Source of the DNA: Bacteroidales bacterium
GTDB lineage: Bacteria; Bacteroidota; Bacteroidia; Bacteroidales; UBA4181
Assembly (NCBI GenBank): GCA_031551645.1
Contig: JAVBNI010000087.1
Location: forward strand, 13,381 to 77,380
Reading direction: 5' to 3'
Length of the DNA stretch: 64,000 nt
In this document: one piece after another, positions 14,291 to 60,590 of the stretch
Position numbering within the stretch: the first letter of the stretch is position 1
Layout: each line of letters opens with the position of its first letter
Program-made: the position numbers and the translations under genes
Notes under the pieces: generated by a model
The model's input: only the letters and a program-made list of their open reading frames with translations
Told to the model about the DNA's origin: nothing
The model's database searches: none

Positions 14291-15649
14291 TTAATTGTTT
14301 TTTACCAATAACTTTTTGTCGGTGGTAACAAACATACGGGTACTTTCGGTATAATCATGGCCGGAAGGACTTTGGTAGATCAAGTCAACAAAAAAGGCTT
14401 TGTATCCGGATTTTGGATAAGGAATATCAACAACTATTTCACCCTTGCCGGCGGCATTCAAATCCTGTCCCGACCAGGGTTCATCTCTGAAATCCTGATC
14501 TTCGGACTCTGCCCCCCAGAGTTCAGCGCCTTTTAAAAGTGCAGGAGTTGTTTTTACTTTCAACATGATAACACCATCTTGTTCTTTTATGGAATAATCA
14601 CAAATTGGATAATTCCCTCCAGTAATGGTTGTTTCAAAAAAAGCGCCGGTAGAAGTAAACACCTTTTTTCCATCACCCAAGTTGTGTACGGCATTGGGGA
14701 CATAACAGATATAATTCTTTCCCGGAATATCATCGATATAGTTTTTTATTGCATCAACAGGCCAATACGGATCATTTGTCGCCATAAATATCATTTTAGG
14801 CATAGTCAATGACTCCCTGTACGAATATGGATCAACCATTGTCACAAGGTCCTGGCCGCCCTTACTTGTGATCTGCTGGGTAATTCCCAGATCAACATAA
14901 TCCTGAATTTCTACGCTGTAATCTTTCCAGACCTCAATCTGATAATCAACACTGACAGGCATGTTGAGCACGTCAATTACTTTGGGGGCAATGGCTTTTA
15001 CACGTTTGTCATTAGCACCTGTCAACCAAGTAGTCCAGCCGCGTTTTGATTCTCCCGAAACCACAAATTCTTTTATATCCCACTTCCGTTCTTTATCAGC
15101 AAACTGCTGAATCACATCCATTCCCCTGATGGCGCTTTTAGTCATGGGAAAAAGTAAAGGCCAGGTCATATCCCCATCTTTCAAATAATTATGGAATGTG
15201 TAGGAGATTAAAGCATCTTCGGTCAGGTCGTTATAGAGGGGTTGATTAGGCACCTGCCAGAGCACGGCTGTAACCGCCATACTGTTTTTCGCAATCTCAC
15301 ACAGCGGGATTACAAATTTATCATTCCACGAATGCAGATTGGGTTTACCATCCTTAACACTACCCCCGGCAATCAGCATAAGCGCATCAGGGTATTTTAA
15401 CATGTCGGGTACTATAATTACCATTTCATGTACCCAATCAAACTCACGCCAGTGTTGCGATGTAAAGAGCACCCTGTACAAAGTAACACCATCCTGCTGG
15501 ATCTTATCATTCAATTCCCATTTGAAGGAATTGTCGGAATTATTGATATATGCCTGTAGCGCCGTAGCCGGAGTAACTGGGTTTTTAGTTTCGGCACAAC
15601 CGGCAAAAAAAGCACCAATGATGGAAATAAGAAATAGTAACTTCTTCAT
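14291..15649 (-). CDS. PhoPQ-activated pathogenicity-related (PqaA)-like alpha/beta-hydrolase lipoprotein, copy 1
   Basis: Lipobox FFAGC. The N-terminal pattern ALQAYINNSDNSFKW...FTSQHW...IAGGS and the SGESKRGWTTW motif match my recollection of the PhoPQ_related family. Confidence 0.6.
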   Translation of the reverse strand: MKKLLFLISIIGAFFAGCAETKNPVTPATALQAYINNSDNSFKWELNDKIQQDGVTLYRVLFTSQHWREFDWVHEMVIIVPDMLKYPDALMLIAGGSVKDGKPNLHSWNDKFVIPLCEIAKNSMAVTAVLWQVPNQPLYNDLTEDALISYTFHNYLKDGDMTWPLLFPMTKSAIRGMDVIQQFADKERKWDIKEFVVSGESKRGWTTWLTGANDKRVKAIAPKVIDVLNMPVSVDYQIEVWKDYSVEIQDYVDLGITQQITSKGGQDLVTMVDPYSYRESLTMPKMIFMATNDPYWPVDAIKNYIDDIPGKNYICYVPNAVHNLGDGKKVFTSTGAFFETTITGGNYPICDYSIKEQDGVIMLKVKTTPALLKGAELWGAESEDQDFRDEPWSGQDLNAAGKGEIVVDIPYPKSGYKAFFVDLIYQSPSGHDYTESTRMFVTTDKKLLVKNN

Positions 15650-15663
15650 ATTGAACTGTCATT

Positions 15664-15698
15664 AGAAAAAGCAGGAGATACTCTAAAGTATCTCCTGC
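15664..15698 (-). terminator. Hairpin plus T-tract between susD-like and PqaA-like genes (attenuator or 3' stabiliser), copy 1
   Basis: A 12-bp perfect stem (GCAGGAGATACT / AGTATCTCCTGC) with a 4-nt loop, followed on the minus strand by TTTTTCT. It ends 14 nt before the ATG at 15649. Confidence 0.6.
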
Positions 15699-15717
15699 CT
15701 AACATTTCTAAAATAAA

Positions 15718-17466
15718 TTACCAAGGCTTCCCTGTTTCTTGCAAAAGCCACATTCTTGACCATGCACTGTTCTTTGTATTCCCAGGCTCAGAAAATGGTT
15801 GCGGAGTTGGTTCGAGCCTATCAATAGCAACTTCTAAATTATCCCTGTTATAGCTTAATTCTTTAGTGCCATAATAAAAACGTATGGGAGGTACCGGGTT
15901 TTTTGTTCTTGTCCCCTCTGCTAAAACGGGAAAACCTGTTCTTCTCCAGTCAAACCATGCTTCACATGCAGCAGTCCAGCTTGCTATCCATTTCTGCTCT
16001 ATGATTTGCTCTAATGTCTCATTGTAGGCAATGTCAGGATGGGTAATAAAATCGTTATATCCGCTGCTTACACCCCATGTTTCTAAAGAAACTCTGATAG
16101 CTGCGTTATAATGTTCTTTGGCATCCCCGCCCCATCCGTTATAAGCTATTTCGGCAAGGCAGAATTGCATTTCGGCTGCCGACAACATTCTGGCCTTTAG
16201 CAGAGGATCGGCGGCTTTCTCATACAGCGAGCCGAGTTGTGATGCATGAGGATTGTACCTGCCTTGTCCGCCAGGCATATTCAGGTTATATACATATAAT
16301 GTGCCATCCGTCCATGCCGGCGGGTAACCGATATAATCAGTATCATAATTGAGCTTGTGCTTCTGTATGCCACCGTTAGTTCTTTCCCATCTGGTACTGA
16401 CACTGTCACCAATCACGCGTACTCCATCAATAATCTGATCAAATTCAACATCTTTGGTTAAATCAAGTTTTAACGGCGTCTCAACTTTGTTTGCCCACAC
16501 TCCTAATCTGGGATCCTTCGCCCGTGTGGGATCATTATGAGTCGGCCACATTTTATCGATCAATGTCTGACACATTTTTCGTCTGAGATATTCGCTGTCT
16601 ATGGTTTTACTAAACACAGTTGTGGTACGCCATGAATTGCCGGTAGTGGCTCCGATGCATGCATAAGCGGCATCATCGGCAGGAGTCAGAATCAGAGGAT
16701 ATTGTGCGGGATCGCCCAATATTTCTTTGATTCCTGTTTCGGCAATATCCCGTTCTTTGGTCGAAATTCTCAAATAATACCTTAATCTCAGCGAATTGGC
16801 AAATTTTCTCCATTTAGCAACATCACCGTTATAAAGAGGATCCTGATCGGGATTGATGATATATGCGCTCTGCGGTTGGGAGAAAAGCGTGTTCGCTTCC
16901 TTAAGCAACTCAATGACACCAATGTATATATCCCTTTGTTTGTCGTACCGCGGCTTCATAATCCCATCGTCAGCGCAAATTCCTTCAAGATAAGGCGCCG
17001 CACTGTATTTGCTCCAAAAAGGCGCATCAGCCGGCGAATCGCTCCAAAAAGGCGCATCGCCCCAAAAGTCGGCAATAGCTCCAAAATTATATGCCAAAAA
17101 TACTTTTGCTGCACCTTTGTAAAAGTCGTTACCTGCTTCATCTGCCTTCCGCAACATCTCTTTCGCATTTCTAAGGTTCTCGTAGAAGCCGTCCCATTCA
17201 TTGGCCGTCCAGTCATAAGCATTTACTCCTCCTGCCCAGCCATCCTGTTGGATATGCTGCATCACTCCGGAAATATCTCCTAATCCTCCATAACCGTTCA
17301 TCGTATTTCCGGTGCCGGTGATCACGGTGCCCAACAAAAGGCTTACGTCCGCTTGATTTGGATCGACGCCGTTGGGGTTGATGTTCATCTCGTCAAGGTC
17401 TTTACATGAAAAAAGCGAAAGACCAATCAAAAAACATGATACTATAATTGAATATTTTGTTTTCAT
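15718..17466 (-). CDS. SusD/RagB-family outer-membrane lipoprotein, copy 1
   Basis: Lipobox SLFSC, followed by KDLDEMNINPNG. The C-terminal ...NSAWSRMWLLQETGKPW and the overall length are typical. It lies immediately downstream of the SusC-like gene. Confidence 0.85.
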   Translation of the reverse strand: MKTKYSIIVSCFLIGLSLFSCKDLDEMNINPNGVDPNQADVSLLLGTVITGTGNTMNGYGGLGDISGVMQHIQQDGWAGGVNAYDWTANEWDGFYENLRNAKEMLRKADEAGNDFYKGAAKVFLAYNFGAIADFWGDAPFWSDSPADAPFWSKYSAAPYLEGICADDGIMKPRYDKQRDIYIGVIELLKEANTLFSQPQSAYIINPDQDPLYNGDVAKWRKFANSLRLRYYLRISTKERDIAETGIKEILGDPAQYPLILTPADDAAYACIGATTGNSWRTTTVFSKTIDSEYLRRKMCQTLIDKMWPTHNDPTRAKDPRLGVWANKVETPLKLDLTKDVEFDQIIDGVRVIGDSVSTRWERTNGGIQKHKLNYDTDYIGYPPAWTDGTLYVYNLNMPGGQGRYNPHASQLGSLYEKAADPLLKARMLSAAEMQFCLAEIAYNGWGGDAKEHYNAAIRVSLETWGVSSGYNDFITHPDIAYNETLEQIIEQKWIASWTAACEAWFDWRRTGFPVLAEGTRTKNPVPPIRFYYGTKELSYNRDNLEVAIDRLEPTPQPFSEPGNTKNSAWSRMWLLQETGKPW

Positions 17467-17478
17467 ATTACGATTACG

Positions 17479-20400
17479 TTAAAAAGTTAAATTTAGTTTT
17501 ACCCCTATAGGCATCACCCACGGTTCGAGGTTGTATTGTTCCATTCCTTGTCGCATTTGGGTTCCCCTTTTGCCATCGGTGGATGCTTCTATCCCGAATG
17601 CCCTCTCGGGGTCTATCCCAATTTTTGCCTTTGTCCAAAGCATAATGTTCCTGCTATACACGGAAAGTGCAAGGCCTTTGATCCTGAATTGCTCCAGAAA
17701 CTTTGACGGGACTCGATACGTCAGGGTTATTTCCCTGAGTTTGATATAATCGGCAGCGAATAAACTGCCCTCTGCAAAATCCCATGTATCCATGACAATA
17801 TAATAACGCATCACGGTACCTTCTCCACCGAAATTTTCAGTGATCTCTCCGGTAGCACCATCCACAAACACGCCTGGAAAGAAACACCCGTCATTTACAC
17901 CGGCATAAACGAATCCGCCTCTTTCTTTAGTGGGACCTCCCACAAAGTAGTTCATATTGTTCCGGAACAGGTGATCATTTTCAAAGATCCAGTTTTTCAG
18001 ATCAGCGCCTGTGCGACCTTCCGGATTAACAGCAAATTCCTCATAATTACGGGTAGATCCGCCCCAATTTTTCATGCGCCGTTCCGTTTGCGAAAAGAAC
18101 TGACCGCCACATCTCCAGTCGAGCGTCCAACTCAACGAAAGGTTTTTATAAGATACTGTGGAGTTAAGCCCGAGTATAAAATCAGGATTATAATTTCCTA
18201 TTTTATTTTTAGTTTGCTCTATCGGAATTTCCGTATATCCACCAGTGGCATCCAGAACAGGAAAACCGTGATAGGGAGAATTCGGGTCATCTATCCTCTC
18301 TATGGCAGCGCCGTAGATATCTCCTATCTCTTCTCCCACGTAAGTCCACGCTGCTGCATTATCTTTCCAGAACTCTATTTTTTCGATGCTGGGCGCAAGT
18401 TCTTTAAGCGTTGTACGGACTCTGGTCACATTCACGTCGATATCCCACATCCAGTCGCTGGTTTTGATGGGGGTACCTCCGATGGTAAATTCCCATCCTT
18501 TGCTTTGCACCAGTCCCATGTTGATATTTGATGTGCTGGAACCGCTCGACGGAGCATTGGGTACATTTTGTATGATCTGATTTTTATTATCTACCATGAA
18601 ATAAGTTCCTTCAAATCGTAACCTGTTGTCGAAAAATCCCAAGTTCGTACCAAATTCCATGGATGTTGCCAACTCCGGTTTCAGATTGGGCACCAAGATA
18701 GTACCCGATTTACTCAAACGCATGGTTGAACCCCATGGATCCAGAGAATTATACGTCGAAAGCAACTGGTACGGGCTGGTATCGCTACCCACTTGCGCCC
18801 ATCCGCCTCTCAATTTGATTAAGGATATCTTTGGCCCTAAATCGACCATTTGGTTGACCAATAAACTCAAGGATGCCGATGGATAAAAGTACGACCTGTT
18901 ATTCTTGGGGAGCGTGCTGCTCCAGTCGTTGCGCCCTGTCAAATCCAAGTATACCATGTCTTTCCATCCCAGATTGATAAACGCATACAGGCTCTGAACT
19001 GCTTTTTGTGACCAATCGCTGGCATATTCAAGTGCCTCCGGCTTGATATTGCTGATTTTGAAAACATTCGGAACAATCAGCCCCGCTTCTTGTTTCGCTT
19101 TATTTACCACAGAGGTGGCTTTTGTATACATCTCATTGCCTCCGGCAGAAATGGTGTAACTGAAATCGCCCACACGGTCATCCCATTTGATTAAAAAGTC
19201 AAAGTTGCGTTCATAACCCGTTGTATTCATCAGCCCATAATATCCCTTGGGTTCACGAGTCCAACCCAGTGGTATTTTCGTTTCGATCCGTTGAGAAAAC
19301 AAATCCATGGTCATACGCGCCATGGCACTCAATTTAGATGTGATCTGCCACTCTAACATCACATTGCCAAACATGCGATCTCTGCTGAAACCATTTTTGA
19401 TCTCATGTGCCATAAAATACGGATTGTTGGTAGTGCCCGGAATCATATTTACTACTTCGAACCCTTCTTTACCCGGGACCCAGTAATTTTCGAGTCTCCT
19501 GATATCGTAATTCACCGGGAAGTTAACCACCGCTTCCAATACATCACCGCGATTACCCGAAGGTCTGTTGTTGGCCCAATTTCTGCCGTAATTGATATTC
19601 GAACTGAGGGTTAAACTTTTGTTTACTTTTACCTGTACGGCGGTTGAGATGTTATTTCTGTGGAGATCAGTGCCGGGGATAACTCCCTTGTTGGTCATGT
19701 TGGTAACGCCTATGCGGTAGTTGATCCACTCGTTATTGTTCGAAACAGATATCGAATTGGTAGAAGTGATGCCGGTATTCACAAAATTCCTCATATTGTT
19801 CGGGTAACTGACCAACTCACTCGGAATCTGATCCCCATTGCCGTCTGTCGGACTGTCCCACTGTATGGCATAGTAACCTTTATCTAAGGGCATTCCGCTT
19901 GCAAACGACGCGCCTCTAATATCAAAAATGTGTCCTTCAGGATACATGTCGGGTGTTTCTGGCCGCGGGCCATGGGCAAACCATTTCTGTTGCTTATAAG
20001 ATTTGTAAGGAACGTCAAATACAGTATTGGAACTGATATCGACGCGCATACCTTTAGAATTTTTACCCGATTTGGTAGTCACTACAACCACGCCGTTGCC
20101 GGCACGTGAACCGTATAATGCTGCAGCGCTGGGGCCTTTCAAAACAGAAATATTCTCAATGTCCTCCGGATTCAAGTCAGAAATGGCATTACCATAGTCC
20201 ACTCTGTTATCCCTTCCCATTTGGGTAACATTATTCAACGAATTGGCTACGGGAACGCCGTCAATCACGAACAGGGGCTGGTTATCGCTGAAAAGCGAAG
20301 TAGCTCCGCGAATCACCATGCTTACGGAAGAACCTGTTCCACCTGTGGAGTTGATCGTTACGCCCGATACCTTTCCGGCAAGAGCATTCAGTACGTTTTC

Positions 20401-20838
20401 CTGGGGTACTTTTACCATATCGCTGCCACTGACTTTTCCTACAGAGTATCCGAGCGATTTTTCCTGCCGTGTGATACCCAAAGCGGTCACCACCACTTCT
20501 CCTATCTCAGTCACGTCTTCATTCAGTGTCAGATTGATGACTGTCCGGCCTTCTACGGGAACCTCCTGTGGTTTGTAGCCGATAAACGAAAAAACCAAAA
20601 CAGCATTGGATGGTACGGTGATCGTATATGTCCCGTTCAAGTCCGTGACCACGCCCCGTGTCGTTCCTTTCATCACCACGCTAACACCGGGCAGCCCCAG
20701 CTCGTCAGTGTCGGAAGTAATCGTCCCTTTGATGGTAACATCCTGTTGCCCCAGAGCCGAGCTACTGTATAATATAAACATAACGAAAACAAACAATAGT
20801 TGTTTTCCTGCTAATTTAATGATATTGATATAGTTCAT
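17479..20838 (-). CDS. SusC/RagA-family TonB-dependent outer-membrane transporter, copy 1 (no STN extension)
   Basis: The order is signal peptide, CarboxypepD_reg-like segment (ITIKGTITSD...GVSVVMKGTTRG), plug motifs and a barrel of about 900 aa ending ...KLNLTF. Confidence 0.9.
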   Translation of the reverse strand: MNYINIIKLAGKQLLFVFVMFILYSSSALGQQDVTIKGTITSDTDELGLPGVSVVMKGTTRGVVTDLNGTYTITVPSNAVLVFSFIGYKPQEVPVEGRTVINLTLNEDVTEIGEVVVTALGITRQEKSLGYSVGKVSGSDMVKVPQENVLNALAGKVSGVTINSTGGTGSSVSMVIRGATSLFSDNQPLFVIDGVPVANSLNNVTQMGRDNRVDYGNAISDLNPEDIENISVLKGPSAAALYGSRAGNGVVVVTTKSGKNSKGMRVDISSNTVFDVPYKSYKQQKWFAHGPRPETPDMYPEGHIFDIRGASFASGMPLDKGYYAIQWDSPTDGNGDQIPSELVSYPNNMRNFVNTGITSTNSISVSNNNEWINYRIGVTNMTNKGVIPGTDLHRNNISTAVQVKVNKSLTLSSNINYGRNWANNRPSGNRGDVLEAVVNFPVNYDIRRLENYWVPGKEGFEVVNMIPGTTNNPYFMAHEIKNGFSRDRMFGNVMLEWQITSKLSAMARMTMDLFSQRIETKIPLGWTREPKGYYGLMNTTGYERNFDFLIKWDDRVGDFSYTISAGGNEMYTKATSVVNKAKQEAGLIVPNVFKISNIKPEALEYASDWSQKAVQSLYAFINLGWKDMVYLDLTGRNDWSSTLPKNNRSYFYPSASLSLLVNQMVDLGPKISLIKLRGGWAQVGSDTSPYQLLSTYNSLDPWGSTMRLSKSGTILVPNLKPELATSMEFGTNLGFFDNRLRFEGTYFMVDNKNQIIQNVPNAPSSGSSTSNINMGLVQSKGWEFTIGGTPIKTSDWMWDIDVNVTRVRTTLKELAPSIEKIEFWKDNAAAWTYVGEEIGDIYGAAIERIDDPNSPYHGFPVLDATGGYTEIPIEQTKNKIGNYNPDFILGLNSTVSYKNLSLSWTLDWRCGGQFFSQTERRMKNWGGSTRNYEEFAVNPEGRTGADLKNWIFENDHLFRNNMNYFVGGPTKERGGFVYAGVNDGCFFPGVFVDGATGEITENFGGEGTVMRYYIVMDTWDFAEGSLFAADYIKLREITLTYRVPSKFLEQFRIKGLALSVYSRNIMLWTKAKIGIDPERAFGIEASTDGKRGTQMRQGMEQYNLEPWVMPIGVKLNLTF

Positions 20839-20863
20839 ATTCTTATTAAGTTAATATTATTAT

Positions 20864-21796
20864 TTATTCGGCAATAGCATCAAACGTCAGTACTACCGCA
20901 TGAGTTGCTCCATTAAGAGGTATGAGCGCTGCAGCTCCAGTGAAAAATAACGCCAGTTGCATTTTCTCCGCCGTCAGCGACGTAATAATACATTTCTTGT
21001 TAAAATCCAAAAAACCTATAAATTCGTCTTTTGTAAAACTCAGGGTCATCACATCCTTGAAAGTTACATTACCCATAGTGATACCGGAAAATATGGTAAA
21101 GTCCTCTTTTTCTACAAAATTATACGTTGCGCCTTCTGCTGCAGGACATTTGGCATAACAAAAAGCTTGAAAACCACTGGTACCCACTTTTAAAAGCTCA
21201 AGGCTTTTTGCAGTAGCATATATAGATGAACCATAAGATCCGCCATTTTTGGGCAGACGTTGGTAACTTCCGTCAGCTTTGAAAAGATACACGTCTTCAT
21301 ACGCCCATTCCAAACCAATTTGGCTCAATATTCCTGCTGAAAGTGCAGTAGTATTGTTTTTGCCAGTTACAGGAAAATCTTCTACTGCCTCACCAAGCCT
21401 GTCGCCTTTGGAATATGACAACTTCCATTTTTTCCCGTTAGGATAAGTTTGATCACCCGCAAGCATCTGTAAGGGAGAAAGGGCCAAACTCACTTTTTTG
21501 GTGATTGGCTTTTCAATACCGGTAACCGAAAGTGTCACAAAATAGGCACCACCCTCAGTGTAGGTGTGTACTGGATCCTTTTCTGTACTGGTATTTCCAT
21601 CGCCAAAATCCCAACTAAAATTACCATGATTACTCATGGCGTAAAATTCAACATCTTTACCTTCACCAACAATAGCATAATAGAAATTTGCTAGAACTGT
21701 CGGTTCACTTTCAGGTTCTTTTTCTTTACAGGATTGAAATGAAGCTAATGCACAAAAGACAAAAGCTACACATAAAAATAGATTTGATTTTTTCAT
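20864..21796 (-). CDS. PKD-domain surface lipoprotein, first gene of module copy 1
   Basis: Lipobox FQSC followed by KEKEPESEP. PKD signature FSWDFGDGNTSTEKDPVHTYTEGGAYFVTLSVTG. The C-terminal region of about 200 aa is unassigned. Confidence 0.7.
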   Translation of the reverse strand: MKKSNLFLCVAFVFCALASFQSCKEKEPESEPTVLANFYYAIVGEGKDVEFYAMSNHGNFSWDFGDGNTSTEKDPVHTYTEGGAYFVTLSVTGIEKPITKKVSLALSPLQMLAGDQTYPNGKKWKLSYSKGDRLGEAVEDFPVTGKNNTTALSAGILSQIGLEWAYEDVYLFKADGSYQRLPKNGGSYGSSIYATAKSLELLKVGTSGFQAFCYAKCPAAEGATYNFVEKEDFTIFSGITMGNVTFKDVMTLSFTKDEFIGFLDFNKKCIITSLTAEKMQLALFFTGAAALIPLNGATHAVVLTFDAIAE

Positions 21797-21828
21797 ATTG
21801 ACTTATAGTTTAAAATTACTGATTTTTG

Positions 21829-21848
21829 AAATGTAAACGTTTACATTT
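21829..21848. promoter_or_regulatory. LacI/GalR-type operator palindrome, proximal site, copy 1
   Basis: AAATGTAAACGTTTACATTT is a 20-bp perfect palindrome. It lies 32 nt from the ATG at 21796 and 10 nt upstream (gene orientation) of a TAATTTTA box (rc of 21811-21818). Confidence 0.6.
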
Positions 21849-22325
21849 TCAAGCCTTTTTAAAAACATAAAATTATTTCACAAGCAAACAAAATATATTT
21901 TAGATATTAATTTTTCAATAAACAGGCATCGTTAATCAAGAATGAAGCAAAACAAACGAATGGTACAGCAATGTTACTTGTCTGAATAAGTTTCTTCATT
22001 AAATCTGCAAGTAGAGGTTTATCTTTGTTTCAGAATGTAAATCCACGGAGCTTTAGTAAACCCCAGATGCGTTTTGACTATCATACGGAAATTAACCTAA
22101 TCCATCACACGGTCAATACACATGGTTACAAATTTGATTTACATAACTAATAGATATACATATACCGCAGTTTAATAAAAACTTTGATCAGACTTTAGAT
22201 AAGCCTGCCAACAGTAACAACAAATCATTCGCATCATTTCACAATATACAAACCTCTCCCTCTCTCACATAAAAACAATGCGATGATCTTGATCCACAAA
22301 TTTTAATAATAAAAATACAAATATT

Positions 22326-22341
22326 GCTTAAACGTTTAAGC
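22326..22341. promoter_or_regulatory. LacI/GalR-type operator palindrome, distal site, copy 1
   Basis: GCTTAAACGTTTAAGC is a 16-bp perfect palindrome with the same AAACGTTT core. Confidence 0.5.
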
Positions 22342-22526
22342 GACAACTTATAAAACCACTATAGCCTTTTCTCGATCTCCCTTCTTGTAGATTAAACAAA
22401 ACAATTTTCCCTCTTGCCTAAAAACTTCACTCTCATTTGTATCATTAATCGATATTTTGTATAAAATCGTAGAAGCAATCGAATATGCAAATATGAATAC
22501 TAAAACTTATACATCAGCCCTCATTT

Positions 22527-22561
22527 TGCGTGTTTAAATCCTCAAAACGCGCATTTTTTTT
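22527..22561 (+). terminator. Plus-strand intrinsic-terminator-like hairpin in module leader, copy 1
   Basis: A 9-bp stem (22527-22535 / 22545-22553, one G-U pair) with a 9-nt loop, followed by T8 (22554-22561). It is conserved with two compensatory pair changes at 30764-30798. Confidence 0.55.
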
Positions 22562-22671
22562 GAAATTATCAACTATAATAATTTCACATACACACCGGTA
22601 TTCATTTATTTGCAGATTCAGTTGAACGTTGACAGGATAGTGGTGATGTTCCGTTAGTTTTAAATCATACT

Positions 22672-24030
22672 TTAATTACTTTTTACCAGTAACCTTTTGT
22701 CCGTGGTCACAAACATTCTTGTGCTCTTAGTGTATTCGTGGCCGGTTTTCGTCTTATACTTCAGATCAACAAAGAAAGCTTTGTATCCCGATTTAGGATA
22801 ATCAATATGCACAACGATTTCTTTTTTATGGGCTGCATTCAGGTCTTCGCCCGACCAGCTATCATTTCTGAAATCCTGATCTTCCGATTCCGCATGCCAC
22901 AACTCAGCACCTAACAACAAATCCGGGGTTGTTGTTACATTTAATGTAATGATATTGGATTGTTCACTGATTGAATAATCGCATAGCGAGTGGCTTTCTC
23001 CGGTAGCCGTTATTTCAAAAAATGCGCCCAACGATGCAAATGCTTTTTGTCCGTTGCCAAGATTGTGTTTTACATTGGGGACATAACAGGTAAAATTCAC
23101 GCCCGGAATATCGTCAATGTAATTTTTCACTGCGTCAACAGGCCAGTATGGGTCGTTTGTACCCATAACCAACATTTTCGGCATGGTTAATGTTTTTCTG
23201 TATGAATAAGGATCTACCATTGTTACAAGATCCTGGCCACCCTTGCTTGTGATCTGTTGAGTAATTCCCAAATCAACATAATCCTGAATTTCTACGCTGT
23301 AATCCTTCCAGACCTCAATTTGGTAATCTACGCTTACAGGCATATTCAACACATCGATTACCATGGGTGCGATGGCTTTTACACGCTTATCGTTTGCGCC
23401 AGTCAGCCAGGTTGTCCATCCCCGTTTCGATTGCCCTGAAATCAGAAATTCTTTCACCTTCCATTCCAATTCCTTGTCGGTAAATTGCTGTATAGCGTCC
23501 ATCGCTTTGATGGCGCTTTTGGTCATGGGGAAAAGCAATGGCCAGGTCATATCGCCGTCATTCAAATAGTTGTGCAAGGTATAGGATATTAACGCATCTT
23601 CGGAAAGACCGTTATAGAGCGGTTGATTGGGTACCTGCCAGAGTACGGCTGTAACCGCCATACTGTTTTTTGCAGTTTGAAGCATGGGCGCAATAAATTT
23701 TCGGGCCCATTGCGGTGTGTGCGGCTCTCCATCTTCTATTTCGCCTCCGGTTATATACAAAAGGGCATCATGATATTTCAATATGTCAGGAACGATGATC
23801 ACCATCTCATGTTTCCACACGAATTCCCTCCATTGTTGTGAGGTAAATATCAACCGGTAAAGGGTTGCTCCTTCATTTTGGATTTTTTCAACCAGTTTCC
23901 ACTTAAAGGAATTGTCGGAGTTGTTGATATAAGCTTGTAGTGCCGTTTCAGGAGTCACCGGCTTTTTGGCTCCGGTACAACCGGCAAAAAAAAGGCCACT
24001 GATGGAAATAAGAAATAGTAACTTTTTCAT
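22672..24030 (-). CDS. PhoPQ-activated (PqaA)-like alpha/beta-hydrolase lipoprotein, copy 2
   Basis: Lipobox FFAGC and the SGQSKRGWTTW motif. It aligns along its length with 14291..15649. Confidence 0.6.
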   Translation of the reverse strand: MKKLLFLISISGLFFAGCTGAKKPVTPETALQAYINNSDNSFKWKLVEKIQNEGATLYRLIFTSQQWREFVWKHEMVIIVPDILKYHDALLYITGGEIEDGEPHTPQWARKFIAPMLQTAKNSMAVTAVLWQVPNQPLYNGLSEDALISYTLHNYLNDGDMTWPLLFPMTKSAIKAMDAIQQFTDKELEWKVKEFLISGQSKRGWTTWLTGANDKRVKAIAPMVIDVLNMPVSVDYQIEVWKDYSVEIQDYVDLGITQQITSKGGQDLVTMVDPYSYRKTLTMPKMLVMGTNDPYWPVDAVKNYIDDIPGVNFTCYVPNVKHNLGNGQKAFASLGAFFEITATGESHSLCDYSISEQSNIITLNVTTTPDLLLGAELWHAESEDQDFRNDSWSGEDLNAAHKKEIVVHIDYPKSGYKAFFVDLKYKTKTGHEYTKSTRMFVTTDKRLLVKSN

Positions 24031-24043
24031 ATTTAACTGTCTT

Positions 24044-24078
24044 AAAAAAAGCAGGAGATACTCTATAGTATCCCCTGC
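24044..24078 (-). terminator. Hairpin plus T-tract between susD-like and PqaA-like genes, copy 2
   Basis: Same stem as copy 1 with one change. That change is a G-U wobble in minus-strand RNA but an A-C mismatch in plus-strand RNA. T7 follows on the minus strand. Confidence 0.6.
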
Positions 24079-24097
24079 CTAACATTTCTAAAATAAA

Positions 24098-25747
24098 TTA
24101 CCAAGGCTTTCCAGTGTCTTTCAAAAGCCACATCTTAGACCAGGCGCTATTTTTACCGTCTTCTAAGTTATAATTTGTAGCGTCTAAATTTTGAATAGCC
24201 ACATCTACATTATCTCCATTATAATCCAACTCATTAAGGCCATAATAAAATCTTATTGGTATTGCATTTCTTTTAACAACGGTTCCGGGTTTAAGTGCAG
24301 GCAACCCGGTTCTTCGCCAGTCAAACCAAGCTTCGGTTGCAGCGCTCCAACTGGCAATCCATTTTTGCCACATGATTTGCTCCAAGGTATTGTCATATGT
24401 TACACGAGCCACATAATCAGCATAAGAATCTCCTACACCCCATGTATCAAATGAAGCTTTGATACCGGCATAGAAGTTTTCTTCTGCAGTACCTATGGAA
24501 GGCAACCCTCTCCATGCTAACTCGGCCAGGATAAAATACATTTCGGAAGCAGACAACATTCTGGTCTTTAATAAATCACCTGTTGCATTTTTATACATGG
24601 AGCTGATATGGGATGCGTGAGGGTTAATTGGAGCCTGCGCCAGGTTAGGATTAAGATTATATGACTGGGCGTTGGCATGCCATGCCGGAGGAAGTCCAAT
24701 ATAATCTTTGTTCAGGTTTAAAGGAACCTTATAATTATCTTCATAGGTTTTTGCTACGCCTGTTCCAATTACGCGCTCTCCATCTATAATTTTATCAAAA
24801 TCAGCAGGTTTACTGGGATCAATCACCAAAGGAGTCGCTATTTTATCAGCCCACACAGGCAGCCTGGGATCTTTCAAGTCTCTTAATAATTCCACTAATG
24901 TAGAACACATTTTCAATCGTCTCCAATTGGTTTCGTCGGCATTATATTTTGTATTACAAGGCCAGGAATCACTGCCACTACTCCCGACATAAGCAAACGC
25001 AGCATCATCCGCATGGTCAAGAGTAAGAGGATATTTATCAGGGTTGTTGATAATCTTGGCAATCCCCGCTTCTGCAATACTTGGCTCTTTATCTAGTATT
25101 CTCAAATAATACCGTAAAGCCAGAGAATTCGCAAATTTTCTCCATTTGATTACGCTTCCACCAAACAATACATCTAATGTATTATCTACAGTATATTGGC
25201 TTTGTCCCTTGGAGAGCAAGGTGTTCGCCTCTTCCAGATATGCGAGAATACCCAAATAAATATCCCTTTGTGAATCATACACAGGTTTTGCAACACCTTC
25301 TTCTCCTTTCAAGGCATCGCTAAAAGGAGCGTCTCCCCAAATATCGGCGATTATCCCAAAGTTGTATGCTTTAAACACTAACGCGGCTCCTTCATAAAAT
25401 TCAAGTCCCATATTATGGGCCTTTTGACGCATTTCTTCGGCATTCCGGAGATTTCCATAATAATCATCCCAATTCTGGGAAGTAGTCCAGTCATAAGAGT
25501 TATGTCCACTGGCCCAACCATCCTTTTGGGTATGTTGCATGACTCCTGCAATATCCCCAAAACCTAAACCTAATACTCTGGTACCCGTTTCAGTTATAAC
25601 AGTGCCAAGTAAAAATTTGGGGTTTGTTTTAGCCGGATCTATACCATTGGGATTGATATTTATTTCATCTAAATCTTTACATGAATAAAAAGAAAAGCCC
25701 GTCAAAAAAAGTATCAGAATTATATGTAAATTATATGTTTTCATCAT
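24098..25747 (-). CDS. SusD/RagB-family outer-membrane lipoprotein, copy 2
   Basis: Lipobox SFYSC, followed by KDLDEININPNG. The C-terminus ends ...NSAWSKMWLLKDTGKPW. Confidence 0.85.
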   Translation of the reverse strand: MMKTYNLHIILILFLTGFSFYSCKDLDEININPNGIDPAKTNPKFLLGTVITETGTRVLGLGFGDIAGVMQHTQKDGWASGHNSYDWTTSQNWDDYYGNLRNAEEMRQKAHNMGLEFYEGAALVFKAYNFGIIADIWGDAPFSDALKGEEGVAKPVYDSQRDIYLGILAYLEEANTLLSKGQSQYTVDNTLDVLFGGSVIKWRKFANSLALRYYLRILDKEPSIAEAGIAKIINNPDKYPLTLDHADDAAFAYVGSSGSDSWPCNTKYNADETNWRRLKMCSTLVELLRDLKDPRLPVWADKIATPLVIDPSKPADFDKIIDGERVIGTGVAKTYEDNYKVPLNLNKDYIGLPPAWHANAQSYNLNPNLAQAPINPHASHISSMYKNATGDLLKTRMLSASEMYFILAELAWRGLPSIGTAEENFYAGIKASFDTWGVGDSYADYVARVTYDNTLEQIMWQKWIASWSAATEAWFDWRRTGLPALKPGTVVKRNAIPIRFYYGLNELDYNGDNVDVAIQNLDATNYNLEDGKNSAWSKMWLLKDTGKPW

Positions 25748-25755
25748 CTTTATTT

Positions 25756-28700
25756 TTAAAAAGTAACATTTAATTTAAAACCGATCGGAAAAACCCAAGG
25801 CTCAACATTATACCTTTCGATACCCTGTTTCATCTGGATTCCCCGTCTACCTTCAGTAGATGCTTCCGGTTGGAAAGCCCGTTCAGGATCAACTCCGATC
25901 CCAGCTTTGGTCCACAACATGATATTACGACTATAAACAGATACTGCCATGCCTTTTATCCCTTTGATCTTGTTGAGAAACTTGCTGGGTAACTGATAGG
26001 TTAACGAAATTTCACGAAGTTTTACATAATCTGCATCAAATGTAGATGGTTTTCCAAACTCCCAGGGATAAGATCCGATATAAGGTTGAATTAAGGTAGT
26101 ACCTTCTTCACCCAGGTTTTCCTTATAGGTAACATTGCCTTGATCGTCAGTTATAGCAATTACACCCGGCACAAAACACCCGTCATTTACAGGTGTACCC
26201 CCATAGCTTTCACGGAATCCTCCATATTCCACGGTAGGACCGCCCACCACATGAAATCCGTTCTTAATTAGGTCATCTTCATTGGCTACTAACCAATTCT
26301 TCAATTCCTCGCCTGTCCTTCCGCCCGGATGGATCAACCTGTCCAAATGCGTTTGAGAAGATCCGTCTTCGGCCATATAACGTTCTGTTTGCGACACAAA
26401 CTGACCACCATTTCTCCAATCAATGGTCCAGTTTAGTGAAAAGTTTTTATAGGATAAAGTGGACTGAAAGCCCAAGATAAACTTGGGATTATAATTTCCT
26501 ATTCTGTTTTTTGTACTTTCCATTTTTGTTTCCTGCCATTCATATGCGTCAGAGCTTATAATCGGATAACCATAATAAGGTGAATTTGTGTCCGTCACTA
26601 TAAGCATCTCAGCATCGTAAATATCCCCTATTTCATCGCCGACATATGACCATGCACCACATTTTGCATCTTCCCAAAATTGAATTTTGTCAACATTCGG
26701 AGCTATTTCTTTCAAAATTGTTCGGTTTCTCGTAATATTAATACTGACATCCCACATCCAGCTTTGATTTCTTACAGGTACACCTCCGACCGTAAATTCC
26801 CAGCCCTTGCTTTTAATCAAACCGGCATTAATATTTGCCGATGTATAACCACTGGACCCAGCCTGCTTAACATTAGGTATAATTTGATTTTTATTTTCAA
26901 TTTCATAATATGTCCCTTCAAATCTTAATCTGTGGTCAAAAAACCCCAAATCTGTACCGAATTCTATCGAAGTTGCAATCTCGGGCTTCAAAGTGGGGGA
27001 TAATAATTCGCCTTTCTTATTCAACCGGACAGCATCACCCCATTGTCCGCTATTACCATATGTGGCAATCAATTGATACGGACTGGTATCGTTACCTACT
27101 TGAGCCCATCCGCCTCTAAGCTTGACTAATGAAACCCGGTCTCCCATATTGATCATTTGATCGATCAACAGGCTTAAGGATGCAGAAGGATAAAAATAAG
27201 ACCTGTCGTTTGGGGGAAGGGTACTTGTCCAGTCATTCCGGGCTGTCAAATCAAGGTAAACCATATCTCTCCATCCAAGATTGGCAAAAGCATACACGCT
27301 TCGAATAACCTTCTCAGACCAATTACTATTATAAACAAGATTGCCCGACACAATATTGTCAATAGTAAACAGGTTTGGAATAACCAATCCCGATCCCCCC
27401 TTTTTAGAAGAATTTGAAAAAGAGGTAGCTTTCGCATACATCATATTGCCGCCTGCAGAAACGACAAAGCTAAAATCATTCAAACGTTTGGAATATTTTG
27501 CCAAAAAATCAATGTTCCGTTCATAATTTGAGGTGTTCTGAAGGCCATAAAAACCATTAATTTCCTTTGTATACCCACTTGATATTTTTCCTTCGCGCCT
27601 TTCAGAAAACTTATCCATGGAGAAACGTCCCATCAGGCTGATATCGGAAAAGATTTGCCATTCCAGCATTAAGTTACCAAAAATCCTGTCCCTGTCAAAA
27701 CTATTATTTACTTCATGTGCCAAATAGTAGGGGTTATTGTATTGTTCCACATCAGGCACTCTTTGTACCAGCCCTTCATTCCCCGGCTCCCAATACTGCT
27801 CTAAATCCCTGATATCGGTATTTTGCGGAACAGCATATGCCCATTGTAACGGGTTAGTACCCCGATTGCCCGAAGGCCGATTATTTGACCAATTCTGACT
27901 ATAATTGATATTCGAACTAAGCGTTATATTGTCTGCCATTTTCAGAGATGTAGCTGCAGAAACATTGTTCCTGTACAAATCCGAATTGGGAACAATCCCT
28001 CTGTTGATCATATTGGTTACGCCAATCCTGTAATTGTACCGTTCAGTATTATTCGAAACAGACGCCGAATTGGTGGTAGTAATTCCGGTTTGTACAAAAT
28101 TGGCCACATTGTTGGGATGCGACACCAATTCTGTAGGTATTTGAGATCCGTTTGCATCAAGAGGACTATTCCATTGAATGGCATAATATCCTTTATCCAG
28201 TTCAATACCACAACCTGCAGCCAGCTTTGGATCTATATTCATGACGTATCCATCAGGAAAATCGCTTGGCACATAGGAAAAATAACCATTGGCAAATTTT
28301 TTCTGGATGTTATAATATCGATATGGAACATCAAATACGGTATTTGAACTGACATCAACCTGTAATCCTTTGTTTTTCTTTCCGGATTTTGTGGTAATCA
28401 CCACAACTCCGTTCCCTGCGCGTGAACCATATAGGGCAGCTGCACTGGGGCCTTTCAATACCGATACGCTTTCGATATCTTCCGAATTCAAATCGGACAT
28501 CGCATTTCCAAAATCGACACGATTATCAGATCCGAACTCAGTAACATTATTTAATGTATTGGAAATAGGAACCCCATCAACAACAAACAATGGTTGATTG
28601 TCATTACTTAATGATTTAGCCCCACGTATGACCATACTCACAGAAGAACCTGTACCTCCGGTAGAATTAATCTGGACGCCCGATACCTTGCCCGAAAGTG

Positions 28701-29208
28701 AATTCAGTGCATTTTCCTGTACCACCCTAACCATATCCGACCCGCTTACTTTCCCAACAGAGTAGCCAAGCGATTTTTCCTGGCGGCTAATCCCCAAAGC
28801 GGTTACCACTACTTCTTCCAACGCCGTAACATCTTCAATTAAGACTAAATCAATCGTACGTCTTTCGCCTACGACTATTTCCTGAGTTTGAAAACCAATA
28901 AAAGAAAAAATCAAGGTTACATCACCTGAAGGCACATCCAATGTATAATCTCCGTTCAAACCGGTAACAGTCCCTTTCGAAGTACCCTTTATCACAACGC
29001 TGACACCTGGTAATCCGTCTTTTTCGGTATCGGCAGTAACTTTACCTTTAATTGTAAAACCCTGCTGTACACTTACATTTTCTGAACCTGCCAAAGCAAT
29101 GCCTAAAAACAAAGTAGAAACCAGCAAAAGAGACAATACCCTTTTCGTATTTTTTCCAATCATGTATAAGTATTTCATGTATCTTGTTTTTAATAATTGA
29201 TTAATCAT
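25756..29208 (-). CDS. SusC/RagA-family TonB-dependent transporter, copy 2 (start uncertain: ATGs at 29208, 29178, 29163)
   Basis: Same domain order as copy 1, ending ...KLNVTF. Confidence 0.9.
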   Translation of the reverse strand: MINQLLKTRYMKYLYMIGKNTKRVLSLLLVSTLFLGIALAGSENVSVQQGFTIKGKVTADTEKDGLPGVSVVIKGTSKGTVTGLNGDYTLDVPSGDVTLIFSFIGFQTQEIVVGERRTIDLVLIEDVTALEEVVVTALGISRQEKSLGYSVGKVSGSDMVRVVQENALNSLSGKVSGVQINSTGGTGSSVSMVIRGAKSLSNDNQPLFVVDGVPISNTLNNVTEFGSDNRVDFGNAMSDLNSEDIESVSVLKGPSAAALYGSRAGNGVVVITTKSGKKNKGLQVDVSSNTVFDVPYRYYNIQKKFANGYFSYVPSDFPDGYVMNIDPKLAAGCGIELDKGYYAIQWNSPLDANGSQIPTELVSHPNNVANFVQTGITTTNSASVSNNTERYNYRIGVTNMINRGIVPNSDLYRNNVSAATSLKMADNITLSSNINYSQNWSNNRPSGNRGTNPLQWAYAVPQNTDIRDLEQYWEPGNEGLVQRVPDVEQYNNPYYLAHEVNNSFDRDRIFGNLMLEWQIFSDISLMGRFSMDKFSERREGKISSGYTKEINGFYGLQNTSNYERNIDFLAKYSKRLNDFSFVVSAGGNMMYAKATSFSNSSKKGGSGLVIPNLFTIDNIVSGNLVYNSNWSEKVIRSVYAFANLGWRDMVYLDLTARNDWTSTLPPNDRSYFYPSASLSLLIDQMINMGDRVSLVKLRGGWAQVGNDTSPYQLIATYGNSGQWGDAVRLNKKGELLSPTLKPEIATSIEFGTDLGFFDHRLRFEGTYYEIENKNQIIPNVKQAGSSGYTSANINAGLIKSKGWEFTVGGVPVRNQSWMWDVSINITRNRTILKEIAPNVDKIQFWEDAKCGAWSYVGDEIGDIYDAEMLIVTDTNSPYYGYPIISSDAYEWQETKMESTKNRIGNYNPKFILGFQSTLSYKNFSLNWTIDWRNGGQFVSQTERYMAEDGSSQTHLDRLIHPGGRTGEELKNWLVANEDDLIKNGFHVVGGPTVEYGGFRESYGGTPVNDGCFVPGVIAITDDQGNVTYKENLGEEGTTLIQPYIGSYPWEFGKPSTFDADYVKLREISLTYQLPSKFLNKIKGIKGMAVSVYSRNIMLWTKAGIGVDPERAFQPEASTEGRRGIQMKQGIERYNVEPWVFPIGFKLNVTF

Positions 29209-29219
29209 AATATGTCTTT

Positions 29220-30149
29220 CTATTTTATTGCCTCAAATGTAAAAACAGCCGCATGAGTTGGCTTGCTATAATGTTCGCCTGTGGATGTTGCAAGAAACAT
29301 AGCAACCAGCATCTTTTCAGGGGATAATTCTAAAATAATATAATCCCGGGTAAAATCCAGCAATCCAAAAAACTCTCCATCTGCAACGTTGAAATGTATT
29401 ACATTCTTATAGGTCCTATCGGTAACCGTTTTACCATCCGCGCTAACAGTTGGAATAGAAAAATCACCTTCTTTAAAAGTAAATGCTGCATTTTCCTTTG
29501 ATGGATAAGTAACGTAACTCAAACCATAAGTTTTCGAGTTACCTTTTTTTATTTCCAACTTACTAAGTGTTGCAAATACAAGACCGGAAAATGCGCCACC
29601 GCCTTTTGCTACACGTTGGAAACTACCATCGCTTTTAAAAAGAAATTCATCAGCATAAGCCTCCACCATTCCCAAAAAAGCCCCCAATGCTCCCTCAGGA
29701 ATTGGTTGAACAGAAGTAAAATTATCATCTGCATACGCAAGGCGGTCATTTTTAGAATGGCTAGAACTTATTTTCCATTTTTTTCCGTCGGGGTAAGTGT
29801 TGTCACCTGCAAGCATCTGGAGATTTGAAAGTGCCAAGGCTACACTCTTGGTAATTTGTTTTGTCTCCCCATTGCCGGTTACCTTAAGTGTCACAGAGTA
29901 GGTACCACCTTCATCATAAATGTGGACCGGATTTCGATCATTACTGGTATTTCCATCGCCGAAATCCCATAAAAAGGAATCTCCAAAGTTAATCATGGGA
30001 GTAAAAGCCGCTTGTTTCCCAGCAACACTAGAAAAGAAATTCAATGTCTCAGTTGGCTCACTCTTAGGCTCTTTCTCCTTACAGGATTGAAATGAAGCGA
30101 ATGCACAAAAGACAAAAGCTACACATAAAAATAGATTTGATTTTTTCAT
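29220..30149 (-). CDS. PKD-domain surface lipoprotein, first gene of module copy 2
   Basis: 31 of the first 33 residues are identical to 20864..21796. PKD signature FLWDFGDGNTSNDRNPVHIYDEGGTYSVTLKVTG. Confidence 0.7.
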   Translation of the reverse strand: MKKSNLFLCVAFVFCAFASFQSCKEKEPKSEPTETLNFFSSVAGKQAAFTPMINFGDSFLWDFGDGNTSNDRNPVHIYDEGGTYSVTLKVTGNGETKQITKSVALALSNLQMLAGDNTYPDGKKWKISSSHSKNDRLAYADDNFTSVQPIPEGALGAFLGMVEAYADEFLFKSDGSFQRVAKGGGAFSGLVFATLSKLEIKKGNSKTYGLSYVTYPSKENAAFTFKEGDFSIPTVSADGKTVTDRTYKNVIHFNVADGEFFGLLDFTRDYIILELSPEKMLVAMFLATSTGEHYSKPTHAAVFTFEAIK

Positions 30150-30180
30150 ATTGACTATAGTTTAAAATTACTAATTTTTG

Positions 30181-30200
30181 AAATGTAAACATTTACATTT
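30181..30200. promoter_or_regulatory. LacI/GalR-type operator, proximal site, copy 2 (one central mismatch)
   Basis: AAATGTAAACATTTACATTT is the same site as 21829-21848 with the central CG changed to CA. It lies 31 nt from the ATG at 30149. Confidence 0.5.
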
Positions 30201-30532
30201 CAGGCTTTTTTAAAAGCATAAAATTATTTCACAAGCAAAAAAAGCTTTATTTTAGACATTCATTTTTCAATAACCAGATATCATTAATTGTGAATCAAGA
30301 ATGAAGCAAAACAAATGAATGTTGCAGTAATATGCTACTTATAAATTTCTTCATTTCCGGTACGCTATTAATATATTTTGATAAATATCATATGTTTGAC
30401 AAATTTTTGGCAAATTCACCAACATTGACAACAAATCATTCATTTCACATTCACAATATACAAAACACCTTTCTCTATATCAGATAAAACATGCAACAAG
30501 ATTGACTTGCAGACTTTAATAAAAACACACAA

Positions 30533-30554
30533 ATCGCTTAAACGTTTAAGCGAT
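30533..30554. promoter_or_regulatory. LacI/GalR-type operator palindrome, distal site, copy 2
   Basis: ATCGCTTAAACGTTTAAGCGAT is a 22-bp perfect palindrome. Confidence 0.55.
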
Positions 30555-30763
30555 GGCGTAATAAAATTTATATCCCTTTCTCAATCACATCCCTCCTTTT
30601 AGATTAAATAAAACAACTATTTTTCCTCTTTAAAATTATTAGAGCCATAAAAATCCTACACTCAATTTATGTAATTAAATCATCATTTTGTATAAAACTG
30701 CAGAAGTCATATTAACTCTAATATGCAAAGTTAAATACTAAAATTGTATTTTTGCCCTCATTT

Positions 30764-30798
30764 TACGTATTTAAACCCTCAAAATGCGTATTTTTTTT
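30764..30798 (+). terminator. Plus-strand intrinsic-terminator-like hairpin in module leader, copy 2
   Basis: A 9-bp stem (30764-30772 / 30782-30790) with a 9-nt loop, followed by T8 (30791-30798). Confidence 0.55.
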
Positions 30799-44310: not shown

Positions 44311-44445
44311 CCCTCCCCCATTTAGGGGGAGGGAATTGCGCCACCCAAAGGTAGTGGGCAACAATCAAAGACACATAAAATATACATATCATTTGTCAAT
44401 TTTCCACTAATCCGTACGTCACCCCCTCCCCACATGTGGGGAGGG
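44311..44445. repeat. Two GC-rich hairpins sharing the CCCTCCCC/GGGGAGGG stem
   Basis: Hairpin 1 is 44311-44333 (9-bp stem, loop ATTTA). The second is 44424-44445, the 22-bp perfect palindrome CCCTCCCCACATGTGGGGAGGG. Confidence 0.85.
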
Positions 44446-53035: not shown

Positions 53036-53222
53036 GGCTGCAAGCTCGGCATATCATAGCCCAATGGCTTTAGCCTTGGGACAAATCGTACGATACCGTT
53101 CCTTCAAGTCCTGTAAGGACGATATAACTGATTATGCCGTCCCTTCAGGACTTTGCCTGTTTATTTGTTTTTCACCCAAGGCTAAAGCCATTGGGCTAAG
53201 TTATACCGTCGCTTTGCGACTA
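53036..53222. other. Nested long hairpin of about 190 nt (MITE-like element or structured RNA)
   Basis: A 23-bp perfect inverted repeat pairs 53058-53080 with 53175-53197. An inner 16-bp repeat pairs 53106-53121 with 53138-53153 (14 of 16). The imperfect pairing extends outward. Confidence 0.75.
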
Positions 53223-60528: not shown

Positions 60529-60590
60529 TTTGCAGTGCGTACAACAAATAATTTTCTTTCACAAACATACAAAATTAACCCGACATGTAA

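Follow-up and report, generated by a model that had tools for sequence, protein, structure and literature searches.

We analyzed a 64,000-nucleotide stretch of contig JAVBNI010000087.1 (positions 13,381 to 77,380 of the forward strand) from a Bacteroidales bacterium (GCA_031551645.1), which is referred to below as the window. It carries a polysaccharide utilization locus (PUL) in which pairs of palindromes, candidate operators of a LacI-family repressor, precede two SusC/SusD modules. The genes of the locus all lie on the minus strand, and the two tandem modules are of like composition:

14291-21796, minus strand: module 1, with PKD lipoprotein (20864-21796), SusC (17479-20838), SusD (15718-17466) and a PhoPQ_related protein of family PF10142 (14291-15649)
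22672-30149, minus strand: module 2, with PKD lipoprotein (29220-30149), SusC (25756-29208), SusD (24098-25747) and a PhoPQ_related protein (22672-24030)

Downstream, to position 1189, follow genes for a YdjC deacetylase, two PHP-domain proteins, one of which matches CehA/McbA metallohydrolases, six ceramidase-like paralogues (five at or above the Pfam cut-off and one weaker) and two BD-FAE esterases. The two SusC/SusD pairs together with the co-oriented YdjC, PHP, ceramidase-like and BD-FAE genes mark the locus as a PUL. The enzyme content of this PUL (1189-30149, minus strand) is unusual. As had been stated in a first-pass annotation, which was made from the sequence alone, no SusR-like, hybrid two-component or ECF-sigma/anti-sigma regulator is encoded among the 42 large open reading frames of the window that were scanned.

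Four palindromes are located in the leaders of the two modules:

21829-21848: proximal palindrome of module 1, AAATGTAAACGTTTACATTT, a perfect 20-bp palindrome with the half-site TGTAAAC and a CG centre, 32 nt 5' of the ATG at 21796
30181-30200: proximal palindrome of module 2, the 20-mer of module 1 with its centre changed from CG to CA, 31 nt 5' of the ATG at 30149
22326-22341: distal palindrome of module 1, GCTTAAACGTTTAAGC, a perfect 16-mer continued on the minus strand by AATATTTGTATTTTTATT
30533-30554: distal palindrome of module 2, ATCGCTTAAACGTTTAAGCGAT, a perfect 22-mer with the minus-strand tail TTGTGTGTTT

Reading of the sequence confirmed the coordinates that the first-pass annotation had given for all four. 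Its distances of 31-32 nt between proximal site and ATG were measured as 32 and 31 nt, and its centre-to-centre spacings between proximal and distal site of 495 bp (module 1) and 353 bp (module 2) were reproduced.

Palindromes of this length are rare. Three perfect palindromes of at least 20 bp are present in the window, compared to 0.08 expected from first-order Markov shuffles, and an exhaustive list of those of at least 16 bp comprises six, with 1.45 expected from Markov shuffles. Scanning the window for the distal 16-mer motif with up to three mismatches gave two matches (0.38 expected). The same scan with the 14-mer core showed no enrichment at up to three mismatches (4 matches versus 3.8 expected); the sole informative matches are those with zero or one mismatch, both of which lie in the module leaders. 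The third long palindrome, CCCTCCCCACATGTGGGGAGGG (44424-44445), is a perfect, G+C-rich palindrome of 22 bp that is unrelated to the operators. It lies just 3' of an acyltransferase (FabD-like) gene and is probably a terminator stem.

In the comparative study of Ravcheev et al. 2014 (PMC4052901) LacI-family regulators have motifs that are even palindromes 16-22 nt long, the centre is CG for 1173 of 1303 transcription factors, and over 75% of the sites are located 30-140 bp before the start codon. With lengths of 20, 16, 20 (one central mismatch) and 22 bp all four sites fall within the range of even palindromes of 16-22 bp, and the central CG is present in three of the four, the proximal site of module 2 having CA. 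The proximal sites are centred about 42 nt 5' of the start codon and thus within the 30-140 bp zone, whereas the distal sites, centred about 537 and 394 nt 5' of it, lie outside. The proximal site therefore agrees with the published properties in length, centre and distance to the start codon. Furthermore, the site set of Camas et al. 2010 (PMC2978694) lists the 14-mer TGTAAACGTTTACA under class IATVSR, and this 14-mer is identical in the proximal site and the published predicted IATVSR site. Full-text literature queries with the motif strings returned nothing useful.

The core of the proximal site, the exact 18-mer AATGTAAACGTTTACATT, was scanned in JGI metagenome contigs, where it occurs in at least 120 stretches (790 kb). 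Among the 120 matches listed, 62 loci carry a LacI-family gene as judged by tblastn, and in 33 of the 120 the 18-mer lies 0-150 bp upstream of the LacI-family gene, i.e. in an autoregulatory position. In the first 80 of these loci the 18-mer is found nine times about 1.2 kb upstream of the LacI gene, leaving space for one gene, and four times at most 60 bp downstream of it; the G+C content of these 80 tabulated loci ranges from 0.26 to 0.70. As a control, we inspected 86 loci from genome and metagenome contigs that had been fetched via PKD homologues, and none contained a LacI homologue. Co-occurrence with LacI genes was assessed for the proximal motif only. This comparative evidence and the agreement with published site sets strongly support the LacI/GalR-type assignment of the proximal palindrome made in the first-pass annotation, and the palindrome is with high probability a genuine LacI-family operator. 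We also considered the proximal site as an RNA hairpin and rejected this as its primary role: the link to LacI genes is overwhelming, the A-U-rich stems are weak (-6 to -9 kcal/mol), and no U tract follows.

The LacI proteins that adjoin the exact 18-mer share a uniform recognition helix, S-x-A-T-V-S-R. Among the matches listed, Ala is present at the second specificity position, directly before TVSR, in 60 of the 62 proteins, and residues 15 and 16 are IA in 38, TA in 13, VA in 7, LA in 2 and another combination in 2, with KS in none. According to Camas et al. (PMC2978694), residues 15 and 16 of the TVSR group set operator positions 5 and 4, respectively, and Arg20 pairs with the G at position 6. 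Table S1 of the 2010 study shows that IA, VA and TA read TA at positions 5 and 4 (32, 67 and 29 sites, respectively). All four palindromes of the PUL carry T-A at positions 5 and 4 counted from the centre. The sites, their rarity and a family-wide link of the exact sequence to one class of LacI reading head are established.

The window itself contains one LacI-family gene:

59503-60528, minus strand: full-length LacI-family gene coding for a helix-turn-helix and a periplasmic-binding-protein fold, with the recognition helix L-S-K-S-T-V-S-R

The first-pass annotation had proposed its product as a candidate regulator of the palindromes. The gene lies on the same contig, 29 kb from the sites, its product is full-length, and the window encodes none of the classical PUL regulators named above, all of which would fit a repressor binding the palindromes. 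Its reading head speaks against this. The numbering of the helix residues was confirmed by alignment with PurR, and the KS-TVSR helix is kept in orthologues of 70-84% identity. Camas et al. (PMC2978694) report that KS reads GG (44 sites, ratio 0.99), while all four palindromes carry TA, and, as stated above, no KS head occurs among the 62 LacI proteins adjoining the exact 18-mer. The protein is therefore predicted to be the wrong one, a GG reader rather than the cognate repressor of the TA palindromes. Its close relatives come from metagenome-assembled genomes (MAGs) labelled 'Bacteroidales bacterium', and the orthologues (L087, L088, L089) always follow a gene for a PP-loop ATPase of about 270 aa among housekeeping genes (59503-61403, minus strand, in the window). 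No palindrome like those of the leaders was found near these orthologues. Overall, we regard it as improbable that the protein encoded at 59503-60528 binds the palindromes as a repressor. The cognate repressor is most likely an xA-TVSR LacI protein encoded elsewhere in the genome, as judged from the reading heads associated with the 18-mer.

As to the sites of this LacI protein itself, no conserved palindrome was found upstream of the window gene or its orthologues, where only a -7 box, TATGTTTG, is conserved, and sites of the type GGG..CG..CCC do not occur above chance in the window. The protein is thus an orphan regulator without a recognisable operator. Upstream of the orthologue in the Bacteroidales MAG GCA_031265445.1 (L089, 3390-3700) there are about seven imperfect palindromes TTGCAAGCTTGCAAAC spaced by about 45 bp, which could be a repeat element or a binding array. 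Pseudomonas putida Cra may bind TTAAACGTTTCA; this was given no weight here.

The leaders of the two modules, of 875 and 804 bp, can be aligned from end to end with 77% identity. As they are paralogous over their whole length, the two copies of a site cannot be counted as independent evidence. Conservation is concentrated in three islands. Relative to the ATG of module 1, the first extends from -763 to -704 (82% identity) and contains a promoter-like block, the second from -609 to -493 (72-73%) with the distal palindrome, and the third from -140 to +97 (82-98%) with the proximal palindrome, the start codon and the signal peptide. Between the distal and proximal islands identity drops to 10-63%, so that the distal core stands out as a conserved island amid diverged flanks. 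The coding DNA of the modules is about 50-60% identical, as against 82-98% in the 5' block, and the PKD proteins share 50% identity overall, yet 32 of their first 34 residues are identical. For the 5' blocks (21699-21936 and 30052-30290) this pattern suggests gene conversion or a strong constraint on the start region and signal peptide. An Rfam search of the leaders returned nothing, either at the gathering thresholds or at E-values up to 1, and no conserved small open reading frame was found in them.

Paralogy of this kind raises the question whether the palindromes are functionless, a chance or relic pair that was copied along with the module duplication. The leaders are indeed paralogous throughout, their 5' block may have been homogenised through gene conversion, and orthologous PULs are devoid of the sites. 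On the other hand, a perfect 20-mer of any sequence is expected only about 0.08 times per window, yet the one found equals the consensus operator of a large LacI class; its distance from the start codon is canonical, and the distal core has been conserved within diverged flanks. We consider a lack of function very improbable.

We therefore favor the view that the proximal palindrome ahead of each PKD-SusC-SusD-PhoPQ_related module is the operator of a dimeric LacI repressor of the TVSR group, and assign a probability of roughly 0.65 to it. A number of points weigh against it. The only LacI protein encoded in the window is predicted to read a different operator. The proximal site of module 2 is devoid of the central CpG. 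The distal sites lack G6, the partner of Arg20, and TTAAACGTTTAA is absent from the TVSR sites published by Camas et al. Gene conversion, and not selection on an operator, may be what keeps the proximal block conserved. Several promoter positions are conceivable. A phylogenetic footprint is lacking, since homologous PKD-SusC loci are without leader and palindrome: neither a comparable leader nor a LacI-type palindrome was found at the closest PKD homologues (76% and about 50% identity; L001, L003, L085, L086), and the same holds for the distant homologues L210, L211 and L005. Finally, homologous PULs have other regulator genes nearby, for example one of the AraC type in Pareuzebyella sediminis, and a MarR-type gene as well as a hybrid two-component system in L211. 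The LacI-type wiring appears, from the loci compared, to be specific to this lineage.

Where transcription of the modules might start was assessed from promoter-like sequences. The -7 consensus of the Bacteroidota is TAnnTTTG. The first-pass annotation had assigned this role to the TAATTTTA boxes at 21811-21818 and 30163-30170 (minus strand). Their position 10 nt from the proximal operator is correct; their function as -7 element is not borne out, as the box is without the terminal G of TAnnTTTG and ends 14 nt before the ATG, so that the leader would measure no more than about 10 nt. Of 11 other exact TAnnTTTG boxes upstream of genes in the window, 10 end at a distance of 26-88 nt from the start codon, and the remaining one at 4 nt. 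A second TAATTTTA (21868-21875 and 30219-30226) would place the proximal operator at about +13 to +32. Better matches are located in the most upstream conserved island:

22482-22495, minus strand: -7-like block of leader 1, with CATATTTG at 22488-22495 followed by CATATT; the best box of leader 1
30720-30733, minus strand: -7 block of leader 2, with TAACTTTG at 30726-30733; the only exact TAnnTTTG in either leader

Both blocks lie about 580-700 nt 5' of the ATG and about 150 nt 5' of the distal palindrome, and the motif TTTGCATA is also found 100-125 nt upstream of the PKD homologues in L085 and L086. We therefore regard this far-upstream conserved block as a candidate sense promoter. Transcription from it would give a 5' leader of 580-700 nt containing both palindromes, and a repressor bound there would work as a roadblock.

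The function of the distal palindromes is less clear. They have the 10-bp core TAAACGTTTA and the CG centre in common with the proximal sites and differ from them at position 6, which is G in the proximal half-sites (TGTAAAC) and T in the distal ones (CTTAAAC). Paired sites are common at the 18-mer loci: 80 of these contain 25 secondary sites no more than 700 bp from the main one, nine of them with at most one mismatch, and in these secondary sites G6 is kept almost always. The first-pass annotation's description of the distal palindromes as partners in a two-operator arrangement is therefore overstated, given T6 instead of G6 and a location outside the usual 30-140 bp zone. Its suggestion of looping is conjecture, as the helical phase differs between the two copies (47.1 versus 33.6 turns).

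On the sense strand a U-rich tail follows both distal palindromes. They might thus be intrinsic-terminator-like hairpins of the leader RNA, not, or not only, operators, either acting as an attenuator or ending a transcript of about 170-200 nt that begins at the conserved TAnnTTTG block. In a consensus terminator scan the module 2 copy was flagged as terminator-like (9-bp stem, tail TTGTGTGTTT), and the module 1 copy, followed by AATATTTGTATTTTTATT, failed, its stem having only 6 bp with two G-C pairs. The predicted hairpins have energies of -5 and -10.8 kcal/mol, the only good -7 box precedes each palindrome by about 150 nt, and the missing G6 and the absence from the published TVSR sites point in the same direction. 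Against this, the core TAAACGTTTA with its central CG is common to the proximal operator, an unlikely coincidence for an unrelated hairpin; the 16 core positions including the loop are identical in both copies, so that no covariation supports a stem; the short stem of the module 1 copy is a further objection, as is the putative nature of the promoter. We give this reading roughly one chance in four. The distal palindromes may be auxiliary operators, leader terminators or attenuators, or both.

Further conserved elements are located beside the promoter-like block on the opposite strand of the leaders, antisense to the PUL genes:

22528-22561, plus strand: terminator-like hairpin followed by T8, leader 1
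30765-30798, plus strand: terminator-like hairpin followed by T8, leader 2

Between the two copies this hairpin shows two compensatory G-C to A-U changes, and a U-G wobble can pair solely in the plus-strand RNA. No plus-strand gene was found near it. The hairpin may be the end of an antisense or small transcript, and cis-antisense small RNAs have been described at Bacteroides PULs. Plus-strand -7-like boxes, GATTTTTG (21821-21828) and AATTTTTG (30173-30180), directly abut the proximal operator and point from the PKD gene toward the plus-strand terminator. The proximal operator might therefore control a plus-strand antisense transcript, instead of or besides the PUL promoter. In addition to the adjoining boxes, TACTTTTG is found 4 nt before the same operator in L092 and L117, and the hairpin with T8, conserved with its two compensatory changes at a distance of 700 or 585 nt, is explained by no plus-strand gene. 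Both boxes, however, are without the first T of TAnnTTTG, conservation between only two paralogous copies has little power, and the Rfam search of the leader was negative. Control of an antisense transcript is in our opinion unlikely. Equally tentative is a combination of these elements, in which the leader would be a compound region with a far sense promoter, a palindrome serving both as LacI site and attenuator, and a LacI-gated antisense transcript ending at the plus-strand terminator; in that case repressor binding would set the balance of sense and antisense transcription over the 600-700 nt leader.

Returning to the proximal palindrome as operator of a TVSR-group repressor, its mode of action can be outlined as follows. 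The central CG step is the insertion point of the hinge-helix Leu. The predicted repressor would have Ala at recognition position 16, preceded by Ile, Val, Thr or Leu, and would read T-A at positions 5 and 4, contact G6 via Arg20 and insert its hinge-helix Leu into the central CpG. Bound repressor would keep both modules off until it is released by a sugar or sugar derivative set free from the PUL substrate; as the repressor would be shared, the two paralogous modules would thereby be co-induced. The distal palindromes would most simply be weaker auxiliary sites for the same repressor, and their hairpin with the U-rich tail may also work in the leader RNA. This model leaves the known workings of LacI repressors and PULs unchanged and represents a sound but ordinary regulatory prediction. 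It offers a way to test how an uncharacterised PUL family of an uncultured Bacteroidales lineage is regulated, and the predicted reading head [I/V/T/L]-A-TVSR allows the repressor to be picked from the full genome.

With regard to the wider gene context, the core set of PKD, SusC, SusD, PhoPQ_related, YdjC and ceramidase-like proteins recurs in Pareuzebyella sediminis (L210), whose locus additionally encodes a BNR sialidase-like protein, DHDPS/NanA-like proteins and an SSF transporter. Every protein checked is the sole member of its own 90%-identity cluster. A profile search of genome contigs with the PKD-lipoprotein alignment was dominated by the generic PKD motif and yielded only two distant full-length relatives (L005, L006). 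In L086 (1100-1417) an open reading frame of 105 aa, helix-turn-helix-like by eye, is located directly upstream of the PKD gene; this PUL family may have another local regulator there. Homologous PULs have genes for AraC-type, MarR-type and hybrid two-component regulators nearby elsewhere and LacI-type sites here, which suggests that regulators are swapped between them. Outside the PUL, an Rfam match to the Acido-Lenti-1 small RNA (53175-53221, plus strand; 41.9 bits, gathering score 37, E 4e-6) sits in a 567-bp gap between a GH78 rhamnosidase gene and a DUF5723 gene.

The first-pass annotation had called LacI control unusual for a PUL. It is already recognised, since the LacI family is among the regulator families of predicted PULs (PMC7641319) and a lacI gene has been described in a locus with susC/susD in 'Gramella forsetii' (PMC4069401). 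Among the loci compared here, the flavobacterial L092 and L117 carry two identical operator cores 65-66 bp apart upstream of SusC/SusD, and L194 has the 18-mer site, a LacI gene with an LA-TVSR head and a SusD-family gene on one contig. Although the classical gut Bacteroides models rarely show LacI-type control of a PUL, such control is not new. The Flavobacteriia loci resemble the PUL described here in having a SusC/SusD module behind LacI-type palindromes. In L092 and L117, however, an exact TAnnTTTG lies 4 nt before the first of the two closely spaced operators, whereas here the sites are 353-495 bp apart, no canonical sense -7 box is adjacent, the locus contains no regulator gene, and the enzyme content is different.

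A close match is provided by the operators of the xA-TVSR class (IATVSR, VATVSR, TATVSR), i.e. the GalR/GalS and CcpA-type operators with the half-site TGTAAAC. The sites are alike in the even palindrome, the CG centre, TA at positions 5 and 4, G6 and the location about 30-40 nt before the start codon, and the identical 18-mer stands beside this class in 60 of 62 cases. They differ here in the CA centre of one copy, in the distal T6, which is normally not tolerated by the class, and in that no gene for a matching protein lies in the window. The looping systems, lac O1/O2/O3 and gal OE/OI, likewise have two sites per unit, one near the gene start and one hundreds of bp away. They need a tetramer or an accessory protein, and in the PUL the spacing and helical phase differ between the copies, and proximal and distal sites disagree at positions 6-8. 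Finally, palindromic sites have been predicted for KdgR, UxaR, UxuR and UxmR of Bacteroides (Ravcheev et al. 2013, PMC3878776), LacI-family repressors that act in the sugar catabolism of Bacteroidales. Their regulons cover monosaccharide (uronate) pathways, whereas the sites described here directly head SusC/SusD modules.

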